Source of the DNA: Deltaproteobacteria bacterium
GTDB lineage: Bacteria; Desulfobacterota; GWC2-55-46; UBA9637
Length of the DNA stretch: 48,151 nt
NCBI GenBank assembly: GCA_016200645.1
Contig: JACQEJ010000096.1
Location: forward strand, 1 to 48,151
Reading direction: 5' to 3'
Shown here: piece after piece, positions 3,435-41,652 of the stretch
How the letters are laid out: every line of letters starts with the position of its first letter
How positions within the stretch are numbered: position 1 is the first letter of the stretch
The notes under the pieces: generated by a model
Told to the model about the DNA's origin: nothing
Seen by the model: the letters and a program-made list of their open reading frames with translations, nothing else
Database searches by the model: none
Translations under genes and position numbers: made by a program

Positions 3435-4949
3435 TTATTTGGCGAGCCTTTCCTTGACCAGCTTATTCAACACCTGCGGATTTGCCTGTCCCTTGGTCGC
3501 CTTCATGGTCTGACCGATAAAAAAGCTGAAGAGTTTTTCCTTTCCTCCCTTATATTCAGCGACCTCTTTGGGATTGGCGGCAATCACTTCGTCTATCGCC
3601 TTTATCAATGCGCCCTCGTTTGAAATCTGGACAAGCCCTTTCCCCTTTACTATCGCCTCCGGGTCCTTGCCTGTTTTATACACATCCTCAAACACTTCCT
3701 TTGCGGTTTTTAAATTGATACTCCCTGCATCAACCATCTTGAGAAGTTTTGCAAAGGCTGAAGGCTGAATGCTGAAAGTGGAAGGCTGTGTTATATCTTT
3801 GCCGTCCTCTTTGATCAGCCTCAACAACTCCCCCATGACCCAGTTGGACACATTTTTGCCAGCAGTTCCTTGCCCCTTGCCCCTTGCCCCTTGCCCCTCG
3901 TATTTTTGGACGCACTCTTCATAATAATTCGCCAATTCCTTGCTTGCGGTTAAAACACCTGCATCATAGGAAGGGATGCCATATTCTTTTATAAACCTTT
4001 GTCTCTTTTTTGCCGGAAGCTCCGGCAAGGTATTTTTTATCTCCTCTATCCATGCCTCATCAATATGCAAAGGAAGCAGATCGGGTTCAGGAAAATAGCG
4101 GTAATCGTGCGCCTCTTCCTTGCTCCGCATGGAAACGGTTATCCCTTTATCAGAATCAAAGAGCAGTGTTTCCTGAATAACCTTGCCGCCGTCCTCTATA
4201 ACCTCTATCTGTCGGTTTACCTCGTAATCAATTGCCTTTTGCACAAATCTGAATGAGTTCATATTTTTAAGCTCTGTCTTTGTGCCAAATTCTTTCCGGC
4301 CCACAGGCCTTATGGAGACATTTGCATCGCAGCGGAAACTCCCCTCTTCCATGTTGCCGTCGCAAATCTCAAGGTAAACCAGTATGTCCCGGAGCGCTTT
4401 GAGATATTCCACCGCCTCTTCTGAATTGCGAATATCCGGCTCGCTCACAATCTCAATCAGAGGAACGCCAGCCCTATTCAAATCAACAAAGCTAAAATCC
4501 GCATCCTCATAGCTCTCGCCGTGAAGGAGCTTTCCTGCGTCCTCTTCCATGTGTATCCTTGTTATGCCGATGCGCCTTTTTGCGCCGTTTACCCCCACAC
4601 CAAAATCTTTGGTGTGGGGGTTTACTTCAATATCAACATAACCCTTTTGTGTCAGGGGTTGGTCATACTGGGAAATCTGATACCCCTTTGGCAGGTCAGG
4701 ATAAAAATAGTTCTTCCGCGCAAAGATGCTTTTGTCGTTAACCTTGCAATGCGTTGCCAGAGCCATCTTTATGGCATATTCAACCGCTACCCTGTTTAAA
4801 ACAGGGAGCGTTCCGGGCATTCCAAGGCAGACCGGACAGACCTGCGTATTCGCCTCTGCGCCGAATTTTGTGGAACACCTGCAAAAGACCTTTGAGTTTG
4901 TCAAAAGCTGGGCGTGGACTTCAAGACCGATAACGGCTTCATATTGCAT
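3435..4949 (-). CDS. gatB: Asp-tRNA(Asn)/Glu-tRNA(Gln) amidotransferase subunit B
   Basis: [35 protein letters not shown] and a GatB/YqeY tail. 504 aa, longer than typical GatB because of two repeat insertions. Confidence 0.95.
3868..3898. repeat. In-frame AAGGGGC heptamer tract (coding strand) inside gatB
   Basis: Plus strand reads ccttgccccttgccccttgccccttgcccct. Encodes [12 protein letters not shown] in GatB. Confidence 0.9.
4592..4620. repeat. Palindromic element family P1 (CCCCCACACCAAA..TTTGGTGTGGGGG), in frame inside gatB
   Basis: cccccacaccaaaatctttggtgtggggg flanked by gtttac on both sides. Encodes [12 protein letters not shown] between IEV and [19 protein letters not shown]. Confidence 0.9.
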
Positions 4950-7076: not shown

Positions 7077-7198
7077 GGAGGCTATATTCTATACCCTTTT
7101 TCAGGCAAATATACAAGCCGATGCCGCCGGAAAGGACGTTTGAATGTTCCCAATTGCCTCTTCCAAAATCAGATAAAGTATGTTAGGCTCTATCTTCT

Positions 7199-10100
7199 AT
7201 GCAGCACGCAAACTTTGTTCATCTGCACCTGCACACCCAGTACAGCCTTCTTGACGGCGCCATAAGGCATGACGATCTTTTCAAGCTCGCCAGGGAGTAT
7301 AAGATGCCTGCCCTTGCCATGACCGACCACGGCAATATGTTCGGCGCCATTGAATTCTATGAGAAGGCTTCGCATCATGGCATTAAGCCTATCATTGGGT
7401 GCGAGGTGTATGTTGCGCCGGGCAGCAGGTTTGACAGGACAGCAGGCCGCGGGAATAAAGAAGGGGCTGAATATGAGGGTTCCCATCATCTCATCCTTCT
7501 GGTAAAAAATATAAAGGGTTATAGGAATCTGTGCAGGCTGGCTACATCCGCCTATCTTGAGGGATTCTATTACAAGCCGAGGATAGATAAGGAGCTTCTC
7601 AAGGCAAATAGTGAGGGTCTTATTGCCCTCAGTTCCTGCCTCCACGGAGAAATCCCGCACCTTATCCTGAACGGCAACAAGGAAAAGGCGCTCAAAGCGG
7701 CGGATGAATACAAGGCAATTTTTAACAACAACAGATTTTATCTGGAGCTGCAGGATAATAAGCTCCCGGAACAAAAGAAGGTGAATGAGGGGCTTCTGGA
7801 GATCAGCAAAAAACTGGATGTCCCCATCGTTGCCACAAACGACTGCCATTATCTGAAGAGAGAAGAGGCAAAGGCGCACGATATTCTGATTTGCATACAG
7901 ACAGGAAAGACAGTAACTGCGACTGACAGGCTTAAGTTCAGGACAGATGAATTCTATTTTAAATCTCCGCAAGAGATGGAGACAGCCTTCAGCTCATATC
8001 CCGAGGCGATAAAGAACACCATCGAGATCGCCGAGAGATGCAATCTGGATTTCAAGCTTAAAGAGCATCACTTGCCTGTTTTTCCTGTGCCGGATGGCGA
8101 GGACATTGATATATTTTTTGAGAAACGGGCGCAGCACGGTTTGGAAAATAGATTAAGGGGTATGGAGCAAGCCGACCTGTCTGCCGAGACTCCGGCACAG
8201 GCAGGCCGTGTCGGCGTAAAAGATGACGGCAACACGGCTGCCTCGGTCCAAAAGTGGCGTTATTATGAAAGACTGGAAAAGGAGCTCAAGGTGATTAAGG
8301 CAATGGGGTTTTCAGGATACTTCCTCATTGTCGCCGATTTTATAGACTTTGCAAAAAAGGAAAACATACCGGTCGGCCCTGGAAGGGGCTCTGCAGCAGG
8401 CAGTCTTGTCGCCTATGCCCTCGGCATTACGAACCTTGACCCGATACAGCACAATCTCCTGTTTGAAAGATTTTTGAATCCTGACAGGATAAGCCTCCCT
8501 GATATTGATATAGATTTCTGCATTGAGGGGAGAGACGATGTCATACGATATGTTGCTGAGAAATACGGCAAGGATAATGTGAGCCAGATAATCACCTTCG
8601 GCCAGATGAAGGCAAAGGCGGTGATACGGGATGTGGGAAGGGCAATGGATATACCATACAGCGAGGTTGATAGGATTGCGAAGCTTGTCCCGAATATATT
8701 GAATATAACCATCGATGACGCCATGAGGCAGGAGCCCAGGCTGAAAGAGCTGAGCGATAAGGACGCAAGGATTAAGGAGCTGATGGATATTGCAAAAACC
8801 CTTGAAGGTCTTCCCCGTCACGCATCAACCCACGCCGCAGGCGTTGTGATATCTAATAAGCCTTTGATAGAATATCTGCCGCTTTACAAGGCCCCCAAGG
8901 AAGAAGTGGTGACAACCCAGTATGCCATGAAGGATGTGGAGAAGATAGGGCTTGTCAAATTTGACTTCCTCGGCTTGAAAACCTTGACTGTTATAGACAG
9001 GGTAGTAAAACTTTTAAAGCAGAAAGGCATAGAACTTGATATAGAAAATGTAAGGCTTGACGATACCGAGACATACAAGCTCTTGAGTTCCGGCAACACC
9101 AACGGCATATTCCAGCTTGAAAGCTCAGGCATAAAGGAGCTCCTCCGGAAGCTCAAGCCTTCAGACTTCGAAGACATTATGTCCGTTGTCGCCCTGTACA
9201 GGCCTGGCCCGCTGCAGAGCGGCATGGTGGATGATTTTATAAAGAGGAAGCACGGCAAGGCGGCCATTAAATATGAACTGCCGCAATTAAAAGAGATGCT
9301 GGCTAATACATACGGCGTTATTGTTTATCAGGAGCAGGTCATGGAAATCGCCAAGGTCCTCGCAGGCTTCAGCCCCGGCGACGCCGATGTGCTGCGAAAG
9401 GCGATGGGAAAAAAGCTTCCCGAAGAGATGGTTGTTCAGAGGGAGAGATTTATTGAAGGCGCCAAGAAAAACAAGGTGGAGCAGAAGAAGGCGGAAAAGA
9501 TTTTTGACCTCATGGCAAATTTTGCCGGCTATGGATTCAACAAATCCCACAGCGCGGCGTATGCGCTCATCGCGTATCAGACCGCGTATCTTAAGGCGCA
9601 TTATCCTGTGGAGTTTATGGCAGCGCTTTTAACTGCCGATATGGGCAATACGGATAATGTCATAAAATATATCGGCGAGTGCCGTGAAATGGCAATTGAG
9701 ATACTGCCGCCGGATGTCAATGAAAGCAGGATGGACTTTACGGTCACCTCCCCCTCTATCCCCCTCGTGGAGGGGGACAGGGGGAGGATACGATTCGGTC
9801 TGGCTGCGGTGAAGAATGTTGGAAGCGCTGCCATAGATGTGATATTAAAAGCAAGGAAAGATGGAGGGCCGTTTGCATCCATAGTGGATTTTTGCACAAA
9901 GGTTGACCTCCGAAAGGTAAACAGGCGGGTTATAGAAAGCCTTATCAAGTGCGGGGCGTTTGATTCTTTAGGCGCGAAAAGGGCCCGGCTTATGGCATCC
10001 ATAGATAAGGTGATGGATATATCGCAGGCGACGCAGAGAGAGAGGGAGAATGGCCAGATAAGCATTTTTCAAACAATCGGGGGCGGGAACAGCGGAACGG

Positions 10101-10775: not shown

Positions 10776-10880
10776 CCCCCACACCTTGACCCCCACACCA
10801 AAGATTTTGGTGTGGGGGCAAGGAAGAAAAGAAGTAACCCTGCGCCAAGAGCGCAGGGCATTCCCAACAAGGTGTGGGGG
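10776..10880. repeat. Nested structured element after the dnaE stop: outer stem enclosing a P1 palindrome and a GC hairpin
   Basis: Outer arms cccccacaccttg (10776-10788) and caaggtgtggggg (10868-10880). Inner P1 palindrome 10790-10818. Hairpin ccctgcgc/gcgcaggg 10838-10858. Confidence 0.85.
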
Positions 10881-12039: not shown

Positions 12040-14211
12040 ATGGACGACTTAAAAAAAATAACAGAACTCAGGGCAAAGATAGATGTCATTGACGACAAGA
12101 TTCTGGACCTCCTGAATAAGAGAGCGCGTCTTGTCATTGAGGTTGGCAAGGAAAAGGTAGAGGGGAAAAGGGATTTTTATGCGCCTGAAAGAGAAAAGGA
12201 GATATACAAAAGGTTGACCGGGAAGAATCCCGGGCCTTTTCCCAATCAAGCGTTAAAGAATGTATTCAGGGAGATTATGTCCGCTTCCCTTTCCCTGGAA
12301 CGACCTTTAAAGGCTAGTTATTTCGGTCCAAAGGCCACCTTTACCCATCAGGCGTGTATGGAGTATTTTGGCCTTTCCGCAGAATTTGTCCCTGAAAAGG
12401 ATATTGCAGATGTGTTTGAAGATGTGGAGAGGGGGAAGACAGATTTTGGCGTGGTGCCTATAGAAAATACCATAGAAGGGGTTGTAAGCCATACCATTGA
12501 CATGTTCGTAACCTCTGATATAAAGATATGCGGGGAGATAATTATGGAGGTATCCCTTTCCCTTTTAAATAAAACCGGCAGGATTGAAGATGTAAAAAAG
12601 ATATGTTCCTACCCCCATGCCATCGCTGAGTGTAGAGAGTGGCTCAGGGAGCATGTTCCGGATATTCCGGTTTTTGATGTGTCTTCAACGGCAATGGCTG
12701 CACAGACCGCAAGCGAAGATCCGTCAGCCGCTGCCATTGCCAGTGAATTTGCGGCAGCCATCTATGATCTGCAGGTTGTTGAAAGAAAGATAGAAGACCA
12801 TACAAATAATTTTACGAGATTTCTTGTTATCGGGAAGAAAAGCCCTGAAAGAAGCGGCGATGACAAGACATCTATCATGTTTGCAGTAAAGGATGTCCCT
12901 GGCGCGCTGTACAGGATTCTTAAACCATTTGCAGAAAAAGGGATAAATCTTACCAAGATTGAATCCAGGCCGCAAAAGGGCAAGGCATGGGAATATATAT
13001 TCTTTGCGGATATGGACGGCCATGTCTCGGACAGCAAGGTGTCCGATGCGCTCAAGGAGCTTGAGGCGCAGTGTTCTTTTATGAAGATACTGGAGGCCTT
13101 AGTTCCATATCCGCCTGGCAAGCCTATGGAAGAGCTTGAGAGGGAGTTGGGGATAAAAAATTCCATCAAACTTGCGTCCAATGAAAACCCGCTTGGGCCT
13201 TCGCCTAAGGCTGTGGAGGCTGTGGCAAAGGCGCTCAAAAATCTCCACAGGTATCCTGATGGCGGATGTTATTATCTCAAGGAAAAGCTGGCTCAGCGTC
13301 TCAAGGTGAAGCCGGAGAATCTCATCATCGGCAACGGCTCCAATGAAATCATTGAGCTTGTCATCAGGACATTTTTAAGACCGGGCGATGAGGCGGTCAT
13401 GGGCAACCCGTCGTTTGCCGTATATCCGCTGGTTGTGCCTGCGGCAGGCGGAAAGAGCGTGCTCGTGCCTTTAAAAAATCTGACCCACGATTTGGATGCA
13501 ATGTTTGACGCGATAACGGAAAATACAAAATTGGTATTCATTGCAAACCCGAACAATCCCACAGGCACAATGAATACCAAGGCGCAGCTTGATAAATTTA
13601 TCGGCAGGTTGCGTAACGATATAATCCTTATTCTGGATGAGGCGTATTATGAATTTGTTACGGATAAGGATTTCCCCGCTTCTTTGGATTATTTAAACAG
13701 CGGCAAGAATATTGTGATACTCAGGACATTTTCAAAGATTTACGGCCTCGCAGGTTTGCGCGTAGGCTACGGCATTGCGCCTGAAAAGCTCAACTTTTAC
13801 ATGAATAAGGTGCGGCAGCCCTTTAATGTAAACAGCCTCGCCCAGATTGCTGCGATGGCTGCCTTGGATGATGACGAGCATCTAAAAAGGTCTCAGCGAA
13901 ATAACAGGGAAGGGCTTGCGTATCTCTTTGGAGAGTTAAAGGCAATGGGGCTTGAGTGCGTGCCTACGCAGGCGAATTTCTTTCTTATCAAGGTGGGCAA
14001 AGGCAAAGATGTTTACCCCCACACCAAAAATTTTGGTGTGGGGGTTTACGATGCGCTTTTAAGACAGGGCGTGATTGTCCGACCGATGGCAAGTTACGGC
14101 CTCGGCGAATACATCCGCGTTACCGTGGGACTGCCTGAGGAGAATAAGAGGTTTGTGGAGGCATTGAAAAAGACAGTAAACAGTAGACAGGAAAAAGATG
14201 GTAGAGGGTAG
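12040..14211 (+). CDS. pheA: Fusion protein: chorismate mutase / prephenate dehydratase / ACT domain + histidinol-phosphate/aromatic aminotransferase (HisC-like)
   Basis: CM helix LRAKIDVIDDKILDLLNKRA. PDT motif YFGPKATFTHQA. ACT motif TSIMFAVKDVPGALYRIL. Then LVPYPPGKP..KLASNENPLGPSP and FSKIYGLAGLRVGY (PLP-lysine motif) with no intervening stop; 723 aa. Confidence 0.85.
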   Translation: MDDLKKITELRAKIDVIDDKILDLLNKRARLVIEVGKEKVEGKRDFYAPEREKEIYKRLTGKNPGPFPNQALKNVFREIMSASLSLERPLKASYFGPKATFTHQACMEYFGLSAEFVPEKDIADVFEDVERGKTDFGVVPIENTIEGVVSHTIDMFVTSDIKICGEIIMEVSLSLLNKTGRIEDVKKICSYPHAIAECREWLREHVPDIPVFDVSSTAMAAQTASEDPSAAAIASEFAAAIYDLQVVERKIEDHTNNFTRFLVIGKKSPERSGDDKTSIMFAVKDVPGALYRILKPFAEKGINLTKIESRPQKGKAWEYIFFADMDGHVSDSKVSDALKELEAQCSFMKILEALVPYPPGKPMEELERELGIKNSIKLASNENPLGPSPKAVEAVAKALKNLHRYPDGGCYYLKEKLAQRLKVKPENLIIGNGSNEIIELVIRTFLRPGDEAVMGNPSFAVYPLVVPAAGGKSVLVPLKNLTHDLDAMFDAITENTKLVFIANPNNPTGTMNTKAQLDKFIGRLRNDIILILDEAYYEFVTDKDFPASLDYLNSGKNIVILRTFSKIYGLAGLRVGYGIAPEKLNFYMNKVRQPFNVNSLAQIAAMAALDDDEHLKRSQRNNREGLAYLFGELKAMGLECVPTQANFFLIKVGKGKDVYPHTKNFGVGVYDALLRQGVIVRPMASYGLGEYIRVTVGLPEENKRFVEALKKTVNSRQEKDGRG
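14016..14044. repeat. Palindromic element family P1, in frame inside the aminotransferase part of the fusion gene
   Basis: cccccacaccaaaaattttggtgtggggg, again flanked by gtttac on both sides. Encodes YPHTKNFGVGVY. Confidence 0.9.
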
Positions 14212-14291
14212 AAGGTAGATGGTAGAAAGAAAATCTTTTGTTTCTCCTGTCTACCTTCTACTACCTACTCTCTACTTCCTACTGCCTACTT
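14181..14291. repeat. Mirrored heptamer hairpin (GTAGAAG words), covers the fusion gene's 3' end and the spacer
   Basis: Left arm ggtagagggtagaaggtagatggtagaaag, right arm ctgtctaccttctactacctactctctacttcctactgcctac. Confidence 0.85.
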
Positions 14292-14309: not shown

Positions 14310-15323
14310 ATGATTATCGTTTTAAGGCCGGATGCAACCAAGGAGCAGATTGACCATCTCATTGAAAAGATAAAAGACCTTGGCTTGTCAGTGCATATAT
14401 CAAAAGGAAAGGAAAGGACTATCATGGGCGTTATAGGCGATGAGTCGCTGTTGGAAGGCGCTCCGTTGGCAGTCTTGCCAGGCGTGGAAAATGTAATGCC
14501 CATATTAAAACCGTATAAGCTGGTCAGCAGAGAATTTCGAAAAGAGGATACTGTAATAGAAGTGGATGGAGTTAAGATTGGAGGGAAAGAGATCCAGGTA
14601 ATTGCAGGACCCTGCAGCATAGAAACGAGAGAACTTTTATTTGATGCTGCAAAAAAGGTAAAGAGGGCGGGGGCGAGGTTACTTCGGGGGGGCGCTTTTA
14701 AACCGAGGACATCTCCGTATGCATTTCAGGGGCTTGGGGAAGAGGGGTTGAAATACCTTGCAGAGGCAAGAAAAAAGACAGGAATGCCCGTTGTGACGGA
14801 ACTTATGGATCCGCGGGATATTGACATTATCTATGAGAATACCGACATAATTCAGATTGGCGCAAGAAATATGCAGAATTTCAGATTGCTGACAGAGGTG
14901 GGTAAATTGGATAAACCCGTGCTTCTAAAGAGGGGTTTGTCCGCAACAATAAAGGAGTTTTTGATGTCCGCAGAGTATATTGCGGCAGAGGGCAATCATA
15001 AAATAATACTTTGTGAAAGGGGCATAAGGACATTTGAAACAGCGGTTCGGAACACCCTTGATTTAAGCGCAGTGCCTGTGCTGAAAGAGGAAACACATCT
15101 TCCTGTTATTGTAGACCCGAGCCATGCTGTGGGAAGATGGGATCTTGTAGCTCCTCTGGCAAAGGCCGCAATAGCCGTGGGCGCGGACGGCCTCATGATA
15201 GAGGTTCATTCTGACCCTGAAAATGCCCTCTGCGACGGGGCGCAGTCTTTGAAGCCTGATAAATTCGCGAGCCTGATGAAAGAACTTAAAAAGGTGGCTG
15301 AGGCAATTGGAAGGACGATGTAG
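14310..15323 (+). CDS. aroF: 3-deoxy-7-phosphoheptulonate (DAHP) synthase, type I-beta with N-terminal ferredoxin-like regulatory domain
   Basis: [26 protein letters not shown]-domain, then [14 protein letters not shown] and DPSHA motifs. The ATG at 14310 is preferred because the longer ORF start (14238) lies inside the repeat hairpin. Confidence 0.85.
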
Positions 15324-16226
15324 ATGAAAGGGGCAAGGGGCAAGGGGCAAGGGGCAGGAGAAATACACTTTAATAAAGTTGCCATAATCGGCGTTGGTCT
15401 TATCGGCGGGTCCCTTGCGATTATTTTGAGAGAAAAGGGAATTGCAAAAAATATTGTCGGCATCGGCAGGGGGCTGAAAAATCTTGAGACTGCAAAAAAA
15501 CTCGGTGTTATTGATTCATACACGCAGGATGCAAGGGAGGGCGTCCGGGACGCAGACCTTGTTGTGGCTGCAATACCTGTTGCAGGTATTGCAAAGGTTA
15601 TAAAAGAAGCGCTGCCTTTGCTCAAGAAAGGCGCAATAGTCACAGATGTCGGGAGCGTCAAGAAAAACATTGTCGATGAAGTAGAAAAAATCCTTCCTGA
15701 TACAATTCATTTTGTCGGAGGCCATCCTATTGCGGGCACTGAGAATGCAGGCGTTGAGGCTGCATTTTCCACACTCTTCCAGAATAAGAGATGCATACTC
15801 ACACCTACCAAAAAAACGAATAAAGCCGCTTTGGGGAAGGTAAAAAAACTGTGGGAGATTGCAGGCTCTGAAGTAATCGTCATGGATGCGGAAAAGCACG
15901 ACAAAATCCTTGCCGCTGTAAGTCATCTGCCCCATGTTGTCGCCTATTCACTCGTGAACACCGTAAGCAACATAAATGATTTTAATGAAAGCATTATAAA
16001 ATATTCAGCAGGCGGTTTTAAGGATTTTACCCGCATTGCCTCAAGCCCGCCTGAGATGTGGCGGGACATCTGCCTTTTGAACAAAGACGCGATACTTGAT
16101 GTTGTCCTAAGATTTCAGAAGACGCTTAAAGGGCTGGAGGAGATGATAAAAGACAGCGATGGAGAGGGGCTTCAAAAGGAATTTGAAAAGGCAAAGGCAG
16201 TAAGGGATGGGTTGAAGAAGGGGTAG
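15324..16226 (+). CDS. tyrA: Prephenate dehydrogenase
   Basis: VAIIGVGLIGGS Rossmann motif and HPIAGTE motif. The N-terminal 11 codons are repeat-encoded. Confidence 0.85.
   Translation: MKGARGKGQGAGEIHFNKVAIIGVGLIGGSLAIILREKGIAKNIVGIGRGLKNLETAKKLGVIDSYTQDAREGVRDADLVVAAIPVAGIAKVIKEALPLLKKGAIVTDVGSVKKNIVDEVEKILPDTIHFVGGHPIAGTENAGVEAAFSTLFQNKRCILTPTKKTNKAALGKVKKLWEIAGSEVIVMDAEKHDKILAAVSHLPHVVAYSLVNTVSNINDFNESIIKYSAGGFKDFTRIASSPPEMWRDICLLNKDAILDVVLRFQKTLKGLEEMIKDSDGEGLQKEFEKAKAVRDGLKKG
15328..15358. repeat. In-frame AAGGGGC heptamer tract at the tyrA 5' end
   Basis: aaggggcaaggggcaaggggcaaggggcagg. Encodes [11 protein letters not shown] directly after the start codon. Confidence 0.9.
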
Positions 16227-16232
16227 GAGTTG
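16110..16232 (+). repeat. Direct repeat, left copy (authentic tyrA 3' end)
   Basis: 123 nt that recur at 17063-17185 with about 5 mismatches (aligned by eye). Confidence 0.9.
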
Positions 16233-16300
16233 CCTTCAGATTGATTAGCACGATAACGATGTGGTAATCTTTACTTTACCGGTATTTAAAAAGGTATCCT

Positions 16301-16624
16301 ATGTCATTAAAGCAATCAGAAAAAAATGCCATTGGGGAGCTAAAGAAGGTTTTAAGTGAAAAATATAGCCTCCTTGATTTTCGCGTATTCGGCTCAAAAG
16401 CAAGGGACGAGGATACTTCCGAATCTGATATAGATATAATGATTGAACTATCTGAATTAAACCCGAGTATTGAGGCTGGTATTGACAAAACCATATTCAA
16501 TATCAATTTACAACACGACTGTTTTATATCCGCAGTGCTTTTCAGCAAGAAGGAGTTGGAAGAAGGTCCGCTTGACCAATCGCCGTTATACAGGGTTATA
16601 GAAAAGGAGGGAGTCTCTCTTTGA
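16301..16624 (+). CDS. Nucleotidyltransferase-domain protein (MNT-type antitoxin)
   Basis: FGSKARDEDTSESDIDIMIE (GS..D.D minimal NTase motif). 107 aa. 4-nt TTGA overlap with the next gene. Confidence 0.85.
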   Translation: MSLKQSEKNAIGELKKVLSEKYSLLDFRVFGSKARDEDTSESDIDIMIELSELNPSIEAGIDKTIFNINLQHDCFISAVLFSKKELEEGPLDQSPLYRVIEKEGVSL

Positions 16625-17031
16625 CCTCCGCAGAAAAAAGGCGCGAACTGGCCATTTATCGCTTGAAACAAGCCTCAGAAACCATTGATGAGGCAAAATA
16701 TCTTTTATCCGGCGGAAAAAGTCCCAGGTCTGTAATAAATAGAGTTTACTATGCAATGTTTTATGCCATCCTTGGCCTGCTGATATTTGAGCCTTACACA
16801 TCATCAAAGCACAGCGGAGTTTTATCCTACTTTAACCGCAGATTTATCAAAAGCGGTCTATTGCCAAATGACATTGGCGAAACCGTGAATATTGCATTTG
16901 AGATGCGCCAAAGAGGGGACTATAGGGAATATGTCGAGCTTACTTATGAACAGGTAGAACCTTTCATAGATAAAGCTGAGGGATTTATCAAGGCCATTCG
17001 GAATTATTTGTCGGAGAGCAAACTGATTTGA
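16621..17031 (+). CDS. HEPN-domain protein (toxin partner of MNT)
   Basis: 136 aa, helical. The only R..H dipeptide (RFIKSGLLPNDIGETVNIAFEMRQRGDYREY region) does not match a clean Rx4-6H motif, so the call rests on the paired position with the NTase gene. TTG start at 16621. Confidence 0.8.
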   Translation: MTSAEKRRELAIYRLKQASETIDEAKYLLSGGKSPRSVINRVYYAMFYAILGLLIFEPYTSSKHSGVLSYFNRRFIKSGLLPNDIGETVNIAFEMRQRGDYREYVELTYEQVEPFIDKAEGFIKAIRNYLSESKLI

Positions 17032-17062
17032 ATAAACGGTCGCTGTCCCTATTTTCTCTCAG

Positions 17063-17179
17063 AGATTTCAGAACACGCTTAAAAGGCTGGAGGAGATGAT
17101 AAAAGACAGCGATGGAGAGGGGCTTCAAAAGGAATTTGAAAAGGCAAAAGGGGTAAGGGATGGGTTGAAGAAGGGGTAG
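17063..17179 (+). pseudogene. Orphan duplicate of the last ~38 codons of tyrA, including the stop
   Basis: Translates to RFQNTLKRLEEMIKDSDGEGLQKEFEKAKGVRDGLKKG*, which parallels the true TyrA C-terminus. No upstream body. Confidence 0.8.
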
Positions 17180-17185
17180 GAGTTG
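17063..17185 (+). repeat. Direct repeat, right copy
   Basis: Matches 16110-16232. Together the two copies bracket only the MNT/HEPN pair. Confidence 0.9.
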
Positions 17186-17201
17186 TTGTAAGAAATCAAT
17201 T

Positions 17202-18152
17202 ATGAAAAAACCGGCAAACAATAAAAAAAAGAAAAAAACATCCAGCCTGCTTAATAAGTCAAGAGGTTGTAGCCCTTCTGAACCGGGTGAATTTTATATA
17301 TCCGAAGCGACAGTCTCTTACGGAAATAACGTCAAAAAGCCCTTCACGGTTTACTATGACAATCCGGAGCCATCTATTAGACTTCTCAAAGGTGATTGCA
17401 TTGAGATTTTAAATCAGGCAAGAGAAAACAGCGTTGATATGATTTTTGCCGATCCGCCGTATTTCCTTTCTAACGGAGGAATTACCTGCCATGCGGGAAA
17501 GATGGTTTCTGTAAACAAGGGGGCGTGGGATAAATCCAAAGGCGTTATAGAAAATCATAAGTTTATCCTTGAGTGGCTGAAAGCGTGCCAGAGGGTTTTA
17601 AAGCCTAACGGCACTATTTGGGTTTCCGGCACGACACATATTATTTACTCCATAGGCTTCGCGATGCAGGAACTTGGCTATAAGATACTTAACGACATTG
17701 TCTGGTATAAGCGCAATGCCCCGCCGAATCTTTCTTGCAGATATTTTACTCACTCCACCGAGATAGTTTTATGGGCAGCAAAGAATCAAAAGAGCAAACA
17801 TTGTTTTAATTATCCATTGATGAAGGAAATGAATCAGGGGAAGCAAATGCGGAATGTTTGGGAAATTTCTGCGCCACAGTCGGAAGAAAAAAAGTTCGGC
17901 AAACACCCTACTCAAAAACCTGTTGATCTTTTAACCAGACTAATACTTGCCTCTACAAAAGAAGGGGATTTGGTTTTAGATCCTTTTTGTGGGAGTTCAA
18001 CAACAGGGGTGGCGGCGATTTCACTGAACAGGAAATATGTGGGAATTGATTTAGAAGAAGATTATCTCAAAGTTTCTGTCAAAAGATTGGAAGAAGCTGC
18101 CGCAAATAAAGAGGCTAAACTGTTTATTGCTGGAAAGGTTGCGGGCTTATGA
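17202..18152 (+). CDS. DNA methyltransferase, beta-class (motif IV before motif I), probably N6-adenine (N4-cytosine not excluded)
   Basis: IFADPPYF (motif IV) lies upstream of LDPFCGSSTTGVAA (motif I). Lys-rich N-terminus; 316 aa. Confidence 0.85.
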   Translation: MKKPANNKKKKKTSSLLNKSRGCSPSEPGEFYISEATVSYGNNVKKPFTVYYDNPEPSIRLLKGDCIEILNQARENSVDMIFADPPYFLSNGGITCHAGKMVSVNKGAWDKSKGVIENHKFILEWLKACQRVLKPNGTIWVSGTTHIIYSIGFAMQELGYKILNDIVWYKRNAPPNLSCRYFTHSTEIVLWAAKNQKSKHCFNYPLMKEMNQGKQMRNVWEISAPQSEEKKFGKHPTQKPVDLLTRLILASTKEGDLVLDPFCGSSTTGVAAISLNRKYVGIDLEEDYLKVSVKRLEEAAANKEAKLFIAGKVAGL

Positions 18153-19498
18153 ATACTTTTAACTCTTTTTTTAAAACATTGTTGGGCAATTCCAATATTT
18201 CATTATCACGAAATTTATCTATTGATGAAATTAGATTTGTTATATCTAAAATTAACGAGTATTTTTATACCAACTATGAAGGTATTGGTCATACAAATAT
18301 TTTAGATGACGATTTTGAGTATTTTTCTGAGTTTCACAAATTTTGGGAAAAGTATCATAAAGAAATATTAAATCCCCAGATCGATGACAGCCAATGCTCG
18401 CTTGTTGCGAATGTTTTGCACGATGTGTTTATCAAATATGGCAGACCGCCTTTTTATGAGTTGTATAATACCCACGCATTAACGGCTGAAGAAATATGCA
18501 AGATAAGATATTTCTCTGCCAATCAGGATTTTAGAGGTTCAAGGGATTTTGAGGATTTGTTTGAAATATATAAAGATGACCCCAGTGTTTTTGATAAGGA
18601 AAATATCAATCAAAATCCAGAGGATTTTTTGAAGAATATTGGGATAACAAGTCTTTCACAGAATGACAAACGTGTTAAGTATGCTATTACTGCGTCCAAA
18701 CTTGTAATTGACAATAAAATAGAGCCTTATGAACTCTTGTCATTTTGTCAAAATGATATTGAAAAGGTAAGAAATCTTTTGATAAGTAATCGCGGTTCTG
18801 GTTTCGGCAATAAGAAGACAGATATGTTTTTGAGAGATATGGTTGTGTTGGGAGTTTGGAGAAAGCCAAAAAACTTTGATAAAATTGATGTTGCCAGTGA
18901 TATAAATACAGTCAAGGTTGCATTAAGAAGCAGGATATTGAAAACAGATATTGTTTTGATTAGTAGTTTTTTGGATATTTTCTGTTATCAATATGGTTTG
19001 ATTGATGATATGAATGCGAAGGCATGGCGGAGGGTATGGGAAATATGGAAAAATAAATATCCAAAGGAATGTATAGAAAGCCCATGCCTAATTGATTATT
19101 TTGCTTACAGAGTGATAGGCAAAGATTTTTGTAAGGAATCGCTATGTATATTTAAGTGTGAATCAGAAAATCATACTTTTAAATGGCATTCAGGAAGAAA
19201 TAAAACTTGCCAAATATGTTTCAAAAATAAGACAAAAAATAAAGCATATGTGCTTAATAAAATATTGCCTTGTACAGATACTCAAGGATATATAGTAATT
19301 GAAAAATCTAATTTTGTTTCCGGTGATAATCCATTATTGCCAAATCTCAAAGAATGTCCTTTTGAAGTTGCATGCAAACCCAAAACTGATATTTTTAAAA
19401 AACTGAACCCACCAAAATCTATAAGTATACTTGGCCAGACTGGATGGGAAAGTGCAAAAACAAGAGGTAATGAAGGTGGCGGTGGCTTAATGTCGTAG
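18149..19498 (+). CDS. Uncharacterised 449-aa protein with an endonuclease-III-like helix-hairpin-helix signature and a Cys-rich C-terminal region
   Basis: ATGA overlap with the methyltransferase stop. LLISNRGSGFGNKKTDMFLRDM..KIDVASDINTVKVALRSRIL resembles HhH-GPD (LPGVGxKTA..VDxHxxRV). Eleven Cys between residues 307 and 409, including CX4CX3C and CX2C. Visibly A+T-rich. Confidence 0.7.
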   Translation: MNTFNSFFKTLLGNSNISLSRNLSIDEIRFVISKINEYFYTNYEGIGHTNILDDDFEYFSEFHKFWEKYHKEILNPQIDDSQCSLVANVLHDVFIKYGRPPFYELYNTHALTAEEICKIRYFSANQDFRGSRDFEDLFEIYKDDPSVFDKENINQNPEDFLKNIGITSLSQNDKRVKYAITASKLVIDNKIEPYELLSFCQNDIEKVRNLLISNRGSGFGNKKTDMFLRDMVVLGVWRKPKNFDKIDVASDINTVKVALRSRILKTDIVLISSFLDIFCYQYGLIDDMNAKAWRRVWEIWKNKYPKECIESPCLIDYFAYRVIGKDFCKESLCIFKCESENHTFKWHSGRNKTCQICFKNKTKNKAYVLNKILPCTDTQGYIVIEKSNFVSGDNPLLPNLKECPFEVACKPKTDIFKKLNPPKSISILGQTGWESAKTRGNEGGGGLMS

Positions 19499-19532
19499 TA
19501 TATAAAACATTCATTTAACTAAGGGAGGATTC

Positions 19533-19694
19533 GTGCCAAAATTTTGTGTAGACTTTGAATTCGCCGGACATGTTGAAGTTGAGGCTGAAAATGAGGAAGA
19601 GGCTAAAAAAATTGTGGAAGGCATGAATCTTGATAAACTTGCAGAGCATGTCCAAAACTTCAATGTCGGCAGACATTATGTTGAGGGAGTATGA
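19533..19694 (+). CDS. Small acidic hypothetical protein (53 aa), GTG start
   Basis: AAGGGAGG at 19521-19528 shortly before the GTG at 19533. Open to the TGA at 19692-19694. Not in the supplied ORF track (below its length cut-off). Confidence 0.4.
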   Translation: MPKFCVDFEFAGHVEVEAENEEEAKKIVEGMNLDKLAEHVQNFNVGRHYVEGV

Positions 19695-19743
19695 TTTTTG
19701 ATTGTTATAGAAAGAAAACTCTAAATAAGACAAAAACCATCTT

Positions 19744-21045
19744 ATGAAATCCATAACCATAAAAAAAGCCCAATCCCTCAGAGGCGAGATAACCGTTCCT
19801 GGCGATAAGAGCATCTCTCACAGGGCGATTATGCTTGGTTCCATTGCTGAAGGGGATACGACAATAAGAGGGCTTTTGAAGGGCGAAGATAATATGGCTA
19901 CCCTCAAGGCCTTCAGGCAGATGGGGGTTCGCATTGATGAGCATGAAAACGGTGTGGTTGCCATTCAGGGCAAGGGGCTTCACGGACTGAAAGAGCCGGA
20001 AGACTTTATAGATGCTGGAAATTCTGGAACCACCATGAGGCTTTTAACAGGGCTGCTTTCAGGCCAGGGGTTTTTTTCTGTCCTCACCGGAGACCAATAT
20101 CTGAGAAAAAGGCCCATGAAAAGGGTTGTTGAGCCATTGAGCCTGATGGGTGCAAGGATATTCGGAAGGGAAAATGGAAATAAGGCGCCTCTTGCTATTG
20201 TCGGCTCAAAACTGAAAGGAATAACTTATAACTCTCCTGTTGCGAGTGCGCAGGTAAAATCCGCCGTTCTCCTTGCGGGTCTATCTGCCGATGGAGTTAC
20301 AACAGTAACTGAGCCGATCATTTCAAGAGACCACACAGAACGAATGCTTGCGTATTTCGGCGCAGAGGTAAAACGTAGCGGAGCAACCGTCAGCATCAAG
20401 GGTGGACAGAAACTTGTAGGCAAGGAGATTGAAGTTCCGGGCGATATTTCCTCTGCCGCATTTTTTATGGTTGCCGCGCTTATCACAAAGGATTCGGAAC
20501 TGCTGATAAAGAATGTCGGCATAAACCCTACCAGAACCGGCGTTGTTGACATATTAAAGGCAATGGGTGGAGATTTGAAAATAGTAAATCAAAGAGAAAT
20601 TTCCGGTGAACCTGTCGGAGATATTCTGGTAAAATCAAGCAAACTCAAAAGCGTGGAGATAAAGGGAGATATAATTCCGAGAGCCATTGATGAATTGCCC
20701 GTTGTTGCTGTTGCCGCTGCATTTGCGGATGGAATTACTGAGATAAGGGATGCAAAGGAACTGCGGGTCAAAGAGAGCGATAGGATAGGAACTATGGCAA
20801 CGCATTTAAAGGAGTTGGGCATACAGGTAACTGAATTTGACGACGGCATGGATATTTTAGGAGGAAGGCCGAAACCGCCGCCGCAAGGGGCTATTTTTAA
20901 CAGCCACGGGGACCACAGGGTGGCTATGTCTATGCTTGTGGCTGGTTTGGCAACAGATAAAGCAGTGCAGGTTTTTGATACCGACTGCATAGATACCTCT
21001 TTCCCTGGTTTTATGGAATTATTGGAAGGTGTTAAAAAGACATGA
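19744..21045 (+). CDS. aroA: 3-phosphoshikimate 1-carboxyvinyltransferase (EPSP synthase)
   Basis: VPGDKSISHRA, GNSGTTMRLL, RVKESDR and DHRVAMS motifs; 433 aa. Confidence 0.95.
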   Translation: MKSITIKKAQSLRGEITVPGDKSISHRAIMLGSIAEGDTTIRGLLKGEDNMATLKAFRQMGVRIDEHENGVVAIQGKGLHGLKEPEDFIDAGNSGTTMRLLTGLLSGQGFFSVLTGDQYLRKRPMKRVVEPLSLMGARIFGRENGNKAPLAIVGSKLKGITYNSPVASAQVKSAVLLAGLSADGVTTVTEPIISRDHTERMLAYFGAEVKRSGATVSIKGGQKLVGKEIEVPGDISSAAFFMVAALITKDSELLIKNVGINPTRTGVVDILKAMGGDLKIVNQREISGEPVGDILVKSSKLKSVEIKGDIIPRAIDELPVVAVAAAFADGITEIRDAKELRVKESDRIGTMATHLKELGIQVTEFDDGMDILGGRPKPPPQGAIFNSHGDHRVAMSMLVAGLATDKAVQVFDTDCIDTSFPGFMELLEGVKKT

Positions 21046-23127: not shown

Positions 23128-23133
23128 AAATAC

Positions 23134-23172
23134 AGTAGAAAGTAGAAGGTAGAAGGTAGAAGACTGTCTACT
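23134..23172. repeat. Intergenic GTAGAAG heptamer tract
   Basis: cagtagaaagtagaaggtagaaggtagaagactgtctact. Same word as 14181-14291. Confidence 0.85.
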
Positions 23173-27363: not shown

Positions 27364-27418
27364 ATATTTGAAACTCCTTTCTGTATAATTTAGACTTTAG
27401 AGATTATATTTTAATACA

Positions 27419-27512
27419 GGTTGAGGTTAAGATTAAGGTTAAGAGGCTAAAAGATTAAGAGGTTTAAAACCTTTTCACCTTTTTGCCTTTTCATCTCTTA
27501 ACCTTAACCTGT
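27419..27512. repeat. Mirrored hairpin (GGTTAAG words) between rpmI and rplT
   Basis: Left arm ggttgaggttaagattaaggttaagaggctaaaagattaagagg, right arm aaccttttcacctttttgccttttcatctcttaaccttaacc. Confidence 0.85.
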
Positions 27513-34079: not shown

Positions 34080-37000
34080 TTTTGTATGCCGCAACCCTGT
34101 CTCCGCCTATCCCCCTGGCTTCTGCCAGCGCCTTGCGGGCCGCTGTCATAAATCCTTCCAGGTTATGGGCATCATCAAGATATGTCGCCACCCCAACGCA
34201 CGCGCTTATCTTTCCTCCGGGCTGGTTTTCCGCATTGTAAAAAGGGTAACTCTCAATAATAGTTTTGAATCTCTTTGCCAGCTGCAGGGCAGGGGATTTT
34301 GGCGTATTGGGGAGGAGTATCGCCAGCTCATCCCTCCCGTATCTCACTGCCGTATCATAACCCCGGAGTGTCTTTTTTATCAGCTCCGCTGTCTTTCTCA
34401 GCACGGCATTGCCGTGAAACTCTCCATTTCTGCCGATATACCCAGGAAGGTCGTCTATAGCTATCATCAAGAGGGAGCATGATTGTTTGTATCTGTCCAC
34501 CCTCTTTATCTCCTGACCCAGCCTGATATTCAGATAACGGTGATTAAAAAGCCCGGTAATCTCATCCACCAGTCCCGCCCTTTTCGGGTAGAGGTATTCC
34601 AGCTCCCTTATCTGCTCTACCAGATATTCTTTTGAGAAAGAGCCCCGCTGGATAACCCGGTCAATGTATCCCATAACCTTAAGCCTTTCGTCAATCTCCA
34701 TCTCCTTTTCAGTCAGGAGAAATACAGGTATTCCATGGGTTGCCGGGGTGGTTTTTAATTTATGTATGATATCAAAACTGCTGATGCCGTCGTCCAGGCC
34801 GTTAAACATTATATCAATGATGATAATATCCGGTTTGGCAACCAGGGCAAGCTCAATGCCTTCCCCCCCGCTCTTCACGCTTGATACGGAAAACCCTTCG
34901 ACTTCTAATGTTGAGGTTAAAAGTTTTACCATCTCCTCATCTTTCTCTATCAGGAGGATGCTGGCGGGTTGTCTCGATTTTCTGAACATGGGTCTGAATT
35001 CATTGAGCCTTTGAATAAGCCTGGCGCCGTCCACAGGTTTTATGAGATAATCCGCCGCGCCGAGGACAAAACCAAGCTCTTTGTTATCTATGATTGAATT
35101 TATGATGACAGGAATATCTTTTGTCTCCTCGCCGCTCTTTAATGTCTGCAGCACCTCCCAGCCGTCTTTGTTGGGGAGCATGATATCAAGGGTTATGGCA
35201 AAGGGCTTTAACACCCGCGCCTTCTTAACGGCGTCATTTCCGTCAAAGGCATGGGCAACAGAGTAGCCTGCCTTTACCAGATGGATGGTGATAAGCTCGG
35301 ATGTGGGAGGGTCATCCTCCACCACCAGCACCAGAGGCGCATTTGCTTTACCATCACACCAACCAGGTTGGTGTGATGGTAAATCCTGCAAATGCCCCTC
35401 AACAACCGGCAGAGGATGGCTGATGGCAGAGGCTTTAGGCTGAGATCCTTGAAAAGCATCGGAGGCGGCCATCGGCAGGACAAAGCCGAAGGTAGAACCC
35501 TGACCGAACCGGCTTTCAGCCCATATCATCCCGCCGTGGAGCTCCACCAGTCTTTTGGTCAGCGCAAGGCCTAGTCCCAGCCCCTCGTGCCTTCTGGAAT
35601 AACTCCCGTCCACCTGTTCAAACTCCTCAAAGAGCCGTTCCATATCATTCGGTTTTATACCGATGCCGGTATCAATAACTGAAATCTTTAGCCATGAAGC
35701 CGGAAACGGCGGACTGGCTGCAGAAAAGGATTTTCCCGATCCTCCGCTTCCTGCTTCCCACATCCCGGCTTGAAGAATAACTTTGCCATTCTGAGGGGTA
35801 AATTTGATTGCATTGCTTAAAAGATTGTAGAGTATCTGCTTGAATTTTATCCCGTCTGCCGTTATCTCCGGCAGGTCCGGGTTTAATTGTAATTCAAGGG
35901 TTACCCCATGTTTATTAGCCAGCGGCTGCACAATGCCCAGCACTTCATTCACGATGGCTGAAAGGGGGAAAGTGGAATAATCCAGGGTCATCTTGCCCGC
36001 CTCTATTTTTGCGATATCCAGGATATTATTGATAAGCTGCAGGAGATGCCTGCCTGATGTCAGGACATTATTTATATATCTCGCCTGTTTATCATTCAGG
36101 CTGCCAAAGGTATCGGTCAAGAGAATCTCTGAAAAACCTAAGATAGAATTGAGCGGTGTTCTCAACTCATGGCTCATATTGGTGATAAACTGGTTTTTGA
36201 CCTTGTCCGACCTTTCCAGTTGTTTATTGGCCTTCTCCAACTCCATTGTCCTTTCCAGTATCCTCTCCTCGAGCCTGTCGTTAATCTCTTTCAGCTCCCT
36301 GTTCTTTTTATCTATTTCGAGCCGTATCTTTTTTTCTTCCGTTATATCCTTGCTGATGCCAACGGTTCCGATCACCTTTCCCGTCCAATTGCCCAGCTGG
36401 GAAAGGGTAAGGCTTATGTCAACGATCCTCCCGTCCTTTGCCACAAGCTGGGTTTCATAATTGGAGATACTATCTTCCTTTTCCAGCTTGCTCAGTATGT
36501 TATTCCTTTCATCCCTGTTGCGGTACAGTGTGGATACAGCTCTGCCGATGACCTCATCTCTCCTATATCCAAGAATTGTTTCTGCCCCCCGGTTAAATTC
36601 AACAATCTTTCCCTCGGTATCGGTAGTGATGATGACATCAGCCGAGTCATTTAAGACATTTTTCAGATAATCCTTTGCCTCAAGGAGGGCGTCGTTTTTA
36701 TCCTCCAATTCTTTCAGAAGCTGAAATTTTTCTATGGCAAAGGTGGCCTGGGCTCCGAGCAGACTCAGGAAAGATATTTCGTTTGAGGTAAACCTGCGTG
36801 GTTTAAAATCATCTATGTAGAGGATGCCGATGATGCGGCTGTTGGCAAGAAGCGGTATGGCGATGAGAGACCTTATGCCTTCATCAAGCATGAGCGGGTT
36901 ATTGAACAGAGGCTCTTTTTTTATATCAGATATGACAACGGGCTTTCTTGCGCCGAGGATGTGGCTGGTCATGCCGTTTGGCCTTGCCTTCCATCTGTCA

Positions 37001-39040: not shown

Positions 39041-39061
39041 AGTAAAAGACTCAACTTTTCA

Positions 39062-39091
39062 CCCCCACACCAAAAGATTTTGGTGTGGGGG
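39062..39091. repeat. Palindromic element family P1 in the cysM 5' leader
   Basis: cccccacaccaaaagattttggtgtggggg, about 30 nt upstream of the cysM ATG. Confidence 0.9.
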
Positions 39092-39119
39092 ATTCGCTTA
39101 ATCCGGGAGATAAAAAAAT

Positions 39120-40073: not shown

Positions 40074-40153
40074 AACAGTCTAAAAGTTGTTAGTCTACAA
40101 GCCTACAAGTTTTAAAACTTTTAGTCTAACGACTTGTAGGCTCTTAGGCTGTA
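40072..40153. repeat. 82-nt structured element, copy 1 (upstream of the JAMM gene)
   Basis: aaaacagtctaaaagttgttagtctacaagcctacaagttttaaaacttttagtctaacgacttgtaggc... Near-identical to 40610-40692. Confidence 0.9.
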
Positions 40154-40160
40154 TTTAATT

Positions 40161-40622
40161 ATGCTTTCTTTTCCTCAAAATATTTACAACGAAATAATCA
40201 ACCATGCCAAAGAGACGTATCCCTACGAGGCGTGCGGCGCATTGGCGGGAAAACAAAAACAAGGGTCAGGGCGGGTGCCCTCTGGGCGCGGTCAAGGGTC
40301 AAGAACCGAAAAGGATGTTTTGAAATTTTATAGTATGGAGAATATCAACAAGGACAGGGCGAATGACCGGTATGAGATAAATCCTAAAGAATTATTGAAG
40401 ATTGAAAAAGAGGCAAAAGCAAACGGTCTGCAGGTAATTGGTTTCTATCATTCCCATCCCGATCACCCTGACAGGCCTTCGGCCTTGGACAAGGAAAGGG
40501 CATGGCCATTGTATTCGTATGTAATTATTGCCGTTCATAACGGAAGAGATGTTTCCGTAAAGTCCTGGACATTTGAAGATGAGAGAGAACCTTTTAGAGA
40601 AGAGGAGGTAAAAACAGTCTAA
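40161..40622 (+). CDS. mec: JAMM/MPN+ metallopeptidase (Mec-like)
   Basis: EACG..., HSHPDHPDRPSALD (JAMM HxHx7Sx2D motif). 153 aa, including a repeat-derived insertion. Confidence 0.8.
   Translation: MLSFPQNIYNEIINHAKETYPYEACGALAGKQKQGSGRVPSGRGQGSRTEKDVLKFYSMENINKDRANDRYEINPKELLKIEKEAKANGLQVIGFYHSHPDHPDRPSALDKERAWPLYSYVIIAVHNGRDVSVKSWTFEDEREPFREEEVKTV
40272..40291. repeat. Family P3 core 20-mer, in frame inside the JAMM gene
   Basis: cgggtgccctctgggcgcgg is the exact reverse complement of 30384-30403. It is flanked by GGTCAAG-type words. The insert encodes about QGSGRVPSGRGQGS. Confidence 0.9.
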
Positions 40623-40692: not shown

Positions 40693-40693
40693 G

Positions 40694-41521: not shown

Positions 41522-41525
41522 GAAT

Positions 41526-41641: not shown

Positions 41642-41652
41642 TTTTGATTTCT

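Follow-up and report, generated by a model that had tools for sequence, protein, structure and literature searches.

A duplicated tyrA 3′-end around an MNT/HEPN gene pair as a probable recombination seam between two haplotypes of a tyrA–aroA defence hotspot

Defence hotspots that lie between fixed core genes, such as the core defence hotspots (cDHS) of P. aeruginosa and the defence islands of E. coli, have been proposed to be transferred by homologous recombination in their flanks (PMC10250203, PMC10121019). A related process is homology-facilitated illegitimate recombination (HFIR). When HFIR was tested in E. coli, most recombinants were found to be single crossovers of circular molecules, with 109-950-bp duplications of the homologous segment flanking the insert (PMC3240628), and HFIR has been suggested to underlie the displaced orphan 3′-ends of V. 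cholerae type VI secretion system (T6SS) arrays and of Rhs loci (PMC5361080, in which de Vries & Wackernagel 2002 and Prudhomme et al. 2002 are cited as sources for HFIR and single crossovers). Here we describe a locus at which such processes may have met. The window, i.e. the whole analysed stretch of 48,151 nt from a Deltaproteobacteria bacterium (contig JACQEJ010000096.1 of assembly GCA_016200645.1), carries between tyrA and aroA an overlapping pair of genes for a minimal nucleotidyltransferase (MNT) and a HEPN-domain protein, a putative toxin–antitoxin (TA) pair, which has a copy of the tyrA 3′-end on either side. The tyrA–aroA interval (15324-21045; coordinates are window positions unless a relative is named, and the genes, spacers and repeat copies described in this interval lie on the plus strand) was compared with related loci, referred to by handles such as L039. 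The repeat is, with high probability, a recombination seam between two haplotypes of a hotspot, formed without a site-specific recombinase.

The direct repeat is 123 nt long (16110-16232 and 17063-17185). Its copies lie 953 nt apart and agree at 118 of 123 positions (96%), with mismatches at repeat positions 12, 22, 87, 89, and 90 and a longest identical run of 64 nt. In 20 Markov-1 simulations of the window, which set the chance level of exact repeats, the longest exact repeat was 14-19 nt; therefore, the 123-nt repeat is not due to chance. Copy 1 comprises the last 39 codons, the stop codon and 6 further nts of the intact tyrA (prephenate/arogenate dehydrogenase; 15324-16226; Pfam PDH_N and PDH_C), which forms the left core flank of the hotspot, and past its right border the sequence continues with 'ccttcag...', a TA-proximal spacer also present in L039. 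Copy 2 is an orphan 3′ fragment of a second tyrA allele. When the two window copies are compared with each other, the borders are sharp at both ends, whereas against the tyrA alleles of relatives copy 2 begins 3 nts earlier, at 17060, with 'cag' (Gln), the codon of most relatives, where the window's own tyrA has Leu. At this full extent (17060-17185) it holds 40 codons, the stop codon and 6 nts, in colinear alignment with the full-length tyrA 3′-ends of L099 and L100. Its translation reads (Q)RFQNTLKRLEEMIKDSDGEGLQKEFEKAKGVRDGLKKG and stop, with no gene body; an in-frame TAA lies upstream (17033-17035), the next start codon is an internal ATG at 17096 (a 27-codon open reading frame, ORF), and copy 2 would thus be a dead remnant with no plausible function. 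An earlier, sequence-only reading of the window had described this duplication with about five mismatches, the second copy as a TyrA C-terminus plus stop codon lacking a gene body, and the overlapping NTase/HEPN pair as the only genes between the copies, and on all of these points it was borne out.

The mismatches identify copy 2 as a separate allele. At four of the five sites the copy 2 state occurs in the tyrA of relatives (aac for Asn, ggcaaaA, and the ggg Gly codon that differs in two bases), leaving a G to R change as its sole private state; the two-base codon change from gca to ggg is also found in L092, L095, and L099. Because these states also occur in tyrA genes of relatives, copy 2 is a different allele rather than a copy of copy 1, and its identity to L092 and L095 (~96%) equals its identity to copy 1. 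No further orphan tyrA 3′ fragment was found in 11 related loci, and two copies of a 28-nt tyrA motif, like two BLAST matches, occur only in the window; therefore, the duplication is a one-off and not a recurrent arrangement. A further, degraded copy of the tyrA 3′-end, considered as a second att candidate between the 449-aa ORF downstream and aroA, came down to a 23-nt match of 83% inside the 449-aa ORF that was judged to be chance, BLAST returning two copies only.

The DNA on the right of copy 2 is that of a haplotype without the TA pair. In L099 (a Joint Genome Institute (JGI) groundwater contig) and L100, a full-length tyrA is followed 23 nts later by a methyltransferase (MTase) gene whose product is 92% aa identical to that of the window. 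Window positions 17060-18095 align in one piece with L099 883-1922 (1040 nt, 84%), and likewise with L100; the alignment with L099 starts at the first base of copy 2 and spans the tyrA 3′-end, the spacer 'ttgtaagaaatcaat(t/c)' and the MTase. The 16 nts that follow copy 2 in the window ('ttgtaagaaatcaatt', 17186-17201) are the native tyrA-to-MTase spacer of the TA-less haplotype, the counterpart of which in L099 and L100, from the tyrA stop to the MTase start, is 'cttgtaagaaatcaatcATG', and the window and L099/L100 alike have 'ttgtaagaaatcaatT/cATG' as the link from the tyrA stop to the MTase. The motif 'ttgtaag' is also present past the tyrA stop in L090, L095, and L097. From the colinearity with L099 and L100 it follows that copy 2 is the truncated 3′-end of a tyrA natively joined to this MTase in the TA-less haplotype.

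The DNA on the left of copy 2 belongs to another arrangement, in which the TA pair directly follows tyrA. The closest relative, L039, is 94.3% identical to the window in nucleotides from mid-tyrA through the HEPN end, and the three genes are equally diverged between the two (tyrA 93.7%, MNT 94.4%, HEPN 94.5%). Past HEPN, L039 carries a wholly different 5.8-kb cargo (ParB/DndB-like, SNF2, and radical-SAM-like genes) and no copy of the tyrA end. The same TA pair stands at the same post-tyrA site, again without the repeat, in L088/L089 (TyrA 87% aa identical) and L097. The tyrA stop of L090 and L095 precedes 'ggagag(a/c)ttgtaag(g/a)', after which a 100-aa gene (MIKK...) starts at once with its ATG, and in L097 the TA pair lies exactly between 'ttgtaagg' and the ATG of that gene (560-600 and 1394-1450) with no long duplication. 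The L097 insert, 16 nts past the tyrA stop, begins with 'agct' and ends with 'agctat', so that its terminal repeat is at most the 4-nt 'agct'. As an observation on the cassette itself, L097 against L095/L090 makes a clean occupied/empty pair.

Traces of the pair persist where it is now missing. In L084-86 and L093, tyrA ends in ...ESKLI and the stop, the tyrA end being fused to the last six codons of HEPN and to its conserved tail; this fusion is evidently the scar of a deletion that removed the whole MNT/HEPN pair, and the TA pair is therefore old at the locus. The scars lie at L084 8880-8960 and L093 1700-1760 (minus strand), with the same breakpoints in two lineages that differ in their present cargo. 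The right flank of copy 1 lacks 12 nts ('ttgtaaggagct') relative to L097, a deletion common to the window and L039, and L097 retains 'gagttgttgtaag', a sequence that the TA-bearing haplotype thus once had. Taken together, the comparison marks the TA pair as an old resident ~16 nts past the tyrA stop, variously present, absent or deleted, and only in the window is it bracketed by tyrA repeats.

Two haplotypes can thus be described. Haplotype A consists of tyrA, a 16-nt 'ttgtaag' spacer, the MNT/HEPN pair, the HEPN tail and further cargo (L039, L088, L097), and haplotype B of tyrA, 'ttgtaagaaatcaat', the methyltransferase, a restriction gene and aroA, without the TA pair (L099, L100). Three features expected of a recombination scar were found: both parental arrangements exist separately, one joint shows minimal homology at an arbitrary position, and the duplicated segments are different alleles. 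The window would be haplotype A up to 17059 and haplotype B from 17060, and we infer the event that brought them together. The B portion would begin 120 nts before its own tyrA stop, carrying in the last 40 codons as an orphan and so creating the 123-nt direct repeat with the end of the resident tyrA. One joint would be illegitimate, between the HEPN tail and tyrA codon ~261, and the other crossover homologous. At the illegitimate joint (17059/17060), where homology to the TA-tail haplotype stops and homology to the tyrA-MTase haplotype starts, the flanking sequences share a microhomology of at most a few nts. The right border of the repeat, 6 nts past the stop, would simply be the point where A and B cease to match, sharpened by the 12-nt deletion in the A spacer, which L039 has too.

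Two routes could lead to this product. In the first, linear DNA from a related strain would enter by HFIR, with the homologous crossover in tyrA if the TA side was incoming, or in the 53-aa ORF/aroA if the restriction-modification (R-M) side was incoming. In the second, a circularised 953-bp fragment (the tyrA 3′-end plus the TA pair) would enter a haplotype-B chromosome by a single RecA-mediated crossover. Both routes would give the same product, neither would need an integrase, and we leave them unranked. Once formed, the 64-nt perfect core would allow RecA to loop out the TA pair, restoring haplotype B and releasing a 953-bp circle.

The sequence-only reading had raised the concern that the duplication might be an assembly artefact. 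In an independent assembly (Logan, k=31, run SRR12113413), the 983-nt contig L001 matches window 16233-17059 at 100% identity and also spans the point where the HEPN tail meets the tyrA fragment. The sequences joined there have no k-mer in common; therefore, an assembler cannot have made the junction, and it reads as real DNA. Logan contigs from SRR12113411/13 also match the window exactly at 17915-19767, and these runs therefore sample the same population as the window. The first 30 nts of L001 are identical to its last 30, which closes it into a 953-nt graph cycle with a single repeat. This repeat has all of the copy 2 variants yet the right flank of copy 1, on the TA side, and the break falls right after the single-nucleotide polymorphism at repeat position 22. 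Between a variant cluster and the flank the copies share a 33-nt stretch, and between the left and right variant clusters a 64-nt stretch; both exceed k-1 = 30, so a k=31 graph cannot phase the variants with the flanks.

Several points weigh against the reading as a seam between two haplotypes. The window is itself a metagenome-assembled contig, and the L001 cycle does not discriminate, fitting a tandem repeat and an excised circle plus empty site alike. No near-identical parental haplotype was present among the relatives, L099 and L100 reaching only 84% nucleotide identity over the colinear stretch, and we infer the immediate parents rather than observe them. The direction of transfer (TA or R-M side incoming) and the route (linear HFIR or circle) are inseparable from sequence.

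The best surviving alternative, itself unlikely, is that the tandem arrangement is not the true chromosome: either a TA-less tyrA-MTase chromosome and a 953-bp circular or amplified molecule carrying the TA pair and one repeat were threaded into one contig, or integrated and excised forms coexist. The closed L001 cycle, with its break after position 22 and its all-copy-2 repeat joined to the TA flank, would suit such a circle, and the 31-mer content of an integrated form is identical to that of a circle plus an empty site. However, a tandem repeat yields the same cycle, a 953-bp circle without a replication function should not reach chromosomal coverage, and the assembler of the window phased all five variants with their flanks. 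Furthermore, the adjacency of tyrA and the TA pair is ancestral in L039, down to the same 12-nt spacer deletion.

A bolder version makes the circle a mobile unit. In this quite unlikely scenario, the 953 bp (the TA pair plus a captured tyrA 3′-end) would act as an integrase-free mini-element, looping out and re-entering TA-less tyrA-MTase chromosomes by RecA crossover through its 123 nts of 'portable homology'. The L001 cycle, with the TA flank attached to a copy-2-type repeat, has the form expected of such a circle. If this were true, an addictive TA pair could spread in a population with nothing but a captured core-gene fragment to attach by.

The sequence-only reading had itself preferred attL/attR sites of a site-specific TA cassette, for which a tyrosine or serine recombinase acting in trans would insert a circular MNT/HEPN element into the tyrA 3′-end and regenerate it. 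The direct repeats do bracket the TA pair alone and the gene end is regenerated, a 953-nt cycle with one repeat appears in an independent assembly, and comparison of the tyrA–aroA junctions of relatives, as that reading had proposed, did uncover TA-empty sites (L090, L095, L099, L100) beside occupied ones. But at the three other occupied sites, those of L039, L088/L089, and L097, the repeat is missing although the TA pair is there, an arrangement that the sequence-only reading had itself named as evidence against insertion. Together with the DNA on its right, copy 2 is colinear with the tyrA-MTase haplotype, and the left border of the repeat falls at an arbitrary codon inside tyrA and not at a recombinase core site. 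No integrase, transposase or tRNA was found in the window's locus or in syntenic relatives (the nearest tRNA is at 22638), in agreement with what had been noted before, so that any recombinase would have to act in trans. The HEPN homologues of 83-98% aa identity with readable upstream DNA were all linked to tyrA and the next ones, of at most 75%, stood in unrelated contexts, so the cassette was not seen at other targets. What stands of the insertion reading is its topology: relative to L099/L100, one repeat plus the TA pair is extra DNA between two tyrA 3′-ends, as in a Campbell-type integration, while a site-specific TA element is very improbable.

It is just as improbable that the tyrA 3′-end was duplicated in situ, by replication slippage or as a long target-site duplication at TA insertion, and that the dead copy then drifted. 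The copies are 96% identical, in the same orientation and 953 nts apart, as such a duplication would leave them, but drift would rarely give four of five states that also occur in relatives, including the two-base change from gca to ggg; the TA pair predates the repeat; and the right flank of copy 2 runs into the native TA-less spacer. The long target-site duplication was rejected on this evidence. An integron gene cassette was rejected since the repeat is tyrA coding sequence with no palindrome, with no inverted repeat reported at the cassette ends and no integrase gene.

With these alternatives weighed, the seam between haplotypes A and B remains the preferred reading, and it can be placed in its setting. 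The synteny tyrA-[variable]-aroA-cmk-ispH is kept in relatives, with aroA (EPSP synthase; 19744-21045; Pfam EPSP_synthase 8.9e-128) as the right core flank in the window. At least 10 cargo arrangements, mostly of restriction-modification and other defence genes, occupy the tyrA/aroA gap in the clade, beside a tyrA flank of 86-94% aa identity. The gap is nearly empty in L094 (~240 nt), which accords with the earlier proposal that the TA and MTase modules split a tyrA-aroA junction. In L084 the cargo is a DpnI-family gene; L087 has an NmeDI_C-domain gene together with DUF6996/7 and an MTase, L099/L100 have an MTase plus a DpnII-family gene, L093 combines a 166-aa ORF with an MTase, and L092 carries a different NTase beside the 53-aa ORF and a remnant of the 449-aa gene. 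The 100-aa gene is accompanied by SNF2/DndB-like sets in L039, L088, L090, L095, and L097, in some of them with the TA pair and in others without it; the window holds the TA pair, copy 2, the MTase, the 449-aa ORF and the 53-aa ORF. The G+C content of the R-M segment is 35.6% and that of the TA pair 40.2%, against 45.4% for the window. The identity of AroA to that of the window is bimodal, 87-89% aa in L084, L087, and L092 and 63-72% in L090, L094, and L095, while TyrA is ~90% throughout; these discordant flanks indicate recombination across the site, as would be expected if linkage were repeatedly broken there, and the two flanks therefore have different histories. The tyrA/aroA gap thus presents itself as a core-gene-flanked defence hotspot in which cargos replace each other.

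Genes near the hotspot, in the window and in syntenic relatives, are housekeeping or defence genes only; in the window they are pheA/hisC, a DAHP synthase gene, tyrA, the MTase, the 449-aa ORF, aroA, cmk, and ispH. Both the TA pair and the R-M genes run in the direction of the aromatic amino-acid genes, as the sequence-only reading had also stated. In a promoter and terminator scan of 15300-19800, counts were at or below shuffle expectation, with no terminator-like site between genes and a weak one inside the MTase, and read-through from the operon is possible. A GTDB genome scan with TyrA gave closest genomes of at most 60% aa identity, L039 excepted, which points to a clade poorly represented among reference genomes. 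L039 (JACPZA010000034.1) is filed under a 'Candidatus Daviesbacteria' metagenome-assembled genome; because it is 94% identical in nucleotides to the window across tyrA and the TA pair, it is probably mis-binned.

The TA pair itself begins behind a spacer ('cttcagattgattagcacgataa...', 16233-16300) that is common to the window, L039, L088, and L097 and is kept upstream of MNT in all TA-bearing relatives. The MNT-type gene, a putative antitoxin (16301-16624; Pfam NTP_transf_2 6.6e-08; PADLOC PDC-S09 7e-16), overlaps by 4 nts the gene of the HEPN-domain protein, a putative toxin (16621-17031; Pfam HEPN PF05168 2.9e-16). The MNT carries a GSx10DxD motif that reads GSKARDEDTSESDID and has a HEPN neighbour, which agrees with the pattern GSx(9-13)DxD plus adjoining HEPN, but it scores 21.8 bits with the NCBIfam MntA model, far below the cut-off of 60. 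In the 136-aa HEPN protein no Rx4-6H RNase motif was found when looked for, and no NCBIfam family matched it. The pair is therefore best called MNT/HEPN and putatively a TA system, membership in 'type VII TA' being a working analogy (PMC7641770). After the HEPN stop follows the conserved HEPN tail (17032-17059), the end of the TA-bearing haplotype, which is homologous to post-HEPN DNA in L039, L088, and L097 and to the deletion scars of L084 and L093; all lineages diverge directly past its 'cctatt(tt)ct'.

On the other side of the seam, the type II N6/N4 DNA methyltransferase (17202-18152; Pfam N6_N4_Mtase 4.2e-61; PADLOC MTase_II 3.3e-100) is 92-93% aa identical to the tyrA-adjoining MTases of L099, L100, and L093. 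It overlaps by 4 nts the gene of a 449-aa protein (18149-19498), a candidate restriction partner for which no family match was obtained in Pfam, NCBIfam, PADLOC or PDB sequences; its slot is held by the DpnII-family gene in L099/L100, and it may be an unclassified restriction enzyme. A 53-aa ORF (19533-19694) travels with it and has homologues in L098, L092, and L039. The trio of MTase, 449-aa, and 53-aa genes also occurs in an unrelated context (L098 6001-8434, the 449-aa protein at 88% aa) and is therefore a mobile three-gene module. The MTase (85-92% aa) is paired with a DpnII-family endonuclease in L099/L100 (L099 1026-2902) and with the 449-aa and 53-aa ORFs in the window (17202-19694) and L098. 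DNA homology to L099 stops at window 18095, still within the MTase gene at its 3′-end, and the partners may accordingly have been exchanged by recombination inside this conserved gene. Remnants of an R-M module like that of the window were also observed: L092 keeps the last 45 codons of the 449-aa gene (8073-8219, 59% aa) and the 53-aa ORF (7889-8047), and in L039 the 53-aa ORF alone stands at the end of a different cargo (7187-7345).

Other features of the window were noted apart from the locus. A 39-nt palindrome, GTTTACCCCCACACCAAAA-N-TTTTGGTGTGGGGGTTTAC, occurs in five copies (4587-4625, 10785-10823, 14011-14049, 35346-35384, and 39057-39095). The copy at 14011 lies in frame inside hisC, where it adds 11 residues (YPHTKNFGVGV) that are missing from HisC of three relatives, and in this it resembles palindromic elements known to be inserted in frame in Rickettsia. 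pheA (chorismate mutase/prephenate dehydratase) and hisC (aminotransferase) are read as one 723-aa ORF (12040-14211), whereas in L084 and L088 they are separate (359 and 366 aa, ~24 nts apart); the single ORF may be a true fusion or may stem from a stop codon altered in sequencing or assembly. Short tandem 6-7-mers (AAGGGGC, GGTAGAA, ATAGGCA, GGTTAAG) build intergenic regions and gene 5′-ends (15328-15358, 1349-1379, 14189-14280, 23128-23161, 27409-27444, and 41522-46633) and often form long inverted arms, for instance the 45-nt arms at 14189-14280. The TyrA N-terminus is encoded by the AAGGGGC run, and the same kind of repeat-like variation is seen at the N-termini of TyrA in relatives. A 92-nt direct repeat with internal palindromic character (40072-40163 and 40611-40702) is 90% identical between copies 539 nts apart.

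If the seam reading is right, the scar offers a clean natural case in which a core-flanked defence hotspot was rebuilt without mobile-element machinery, two cargos being stacked rather than swapped, and in which an orphan gene end marks where the illegitimate joint fell. Since both parental haplotypes, an empty site and deletion scars are present in relatives, the history of the locus can be read stepwise. The case also advises caution, in that duplicated gene ends around a small cassette should not be taken for att sites until other occupied sites have been checked. The scar is a legible example of known processes; it opens no new mechanism and no long-standing question.

The locus can finally be set against the systems that it resembles. 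Integrase-mediated islands in the 3′-ends of genes or tRNAs are likewise bracketed by direct repeats of the target 3′-end around extra DNA and leave the gene intact, but the window has no integrase, the other occupied sites have no repeats, and the second repeat was historically part of the neighbouring cargo. With the HEPN/MNT (HepT/MntA) type VII TA systems (PMC7641770, PMC11586414) the pair shares adjoining, overlapping MNT and HEPN genes and the GSx10DxD motif of the MNT, but its HEPN protein is of the PF05168 type without Rx4-6H and its MNT falls far below the MntA cut-off. The core-flanked defence hotspots of P. aeruginosa (PMC10250203) and E. coli (PMC10121019) have, like the tyrA/aroA gap, fixed core flanks, a variable, low-GC and defence-rich cargo and no mobile-element hallmark genes; unlike them, the hotspot described here is small (0.2-6 kb), is placed within an operon for aromatic amino acids, is not bordered by an RNA gene and belongs to an uncultured groundwater lineage. 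In the effector-immunity arrays of the V. cholerae T6SS and in the Rhs and contact-dependent inhibition (CDI) loci (PMC5361080), the anchor is a toxin gene and arrays of orphans are formed, whereas the anchor in the window is the housekeeping gene tyrA and there is one orphan, without plausible function; the two cases agree in that an incoming module, for which a conserved upstream gene serves as anchor, pushes the older content downstream and leaves orphan 3′ fragments without any integrase. HFIR and circular single crossovers (PMC3240628) differ in that the window case is drawn from comparative sequence and its donor would be a related strain with another haplotype of the same locus; they share with it one homologous anchor, one joint without homology and foreign DNA beside a conserved gene, and both the topology and the size range of their duplications match those of the window.

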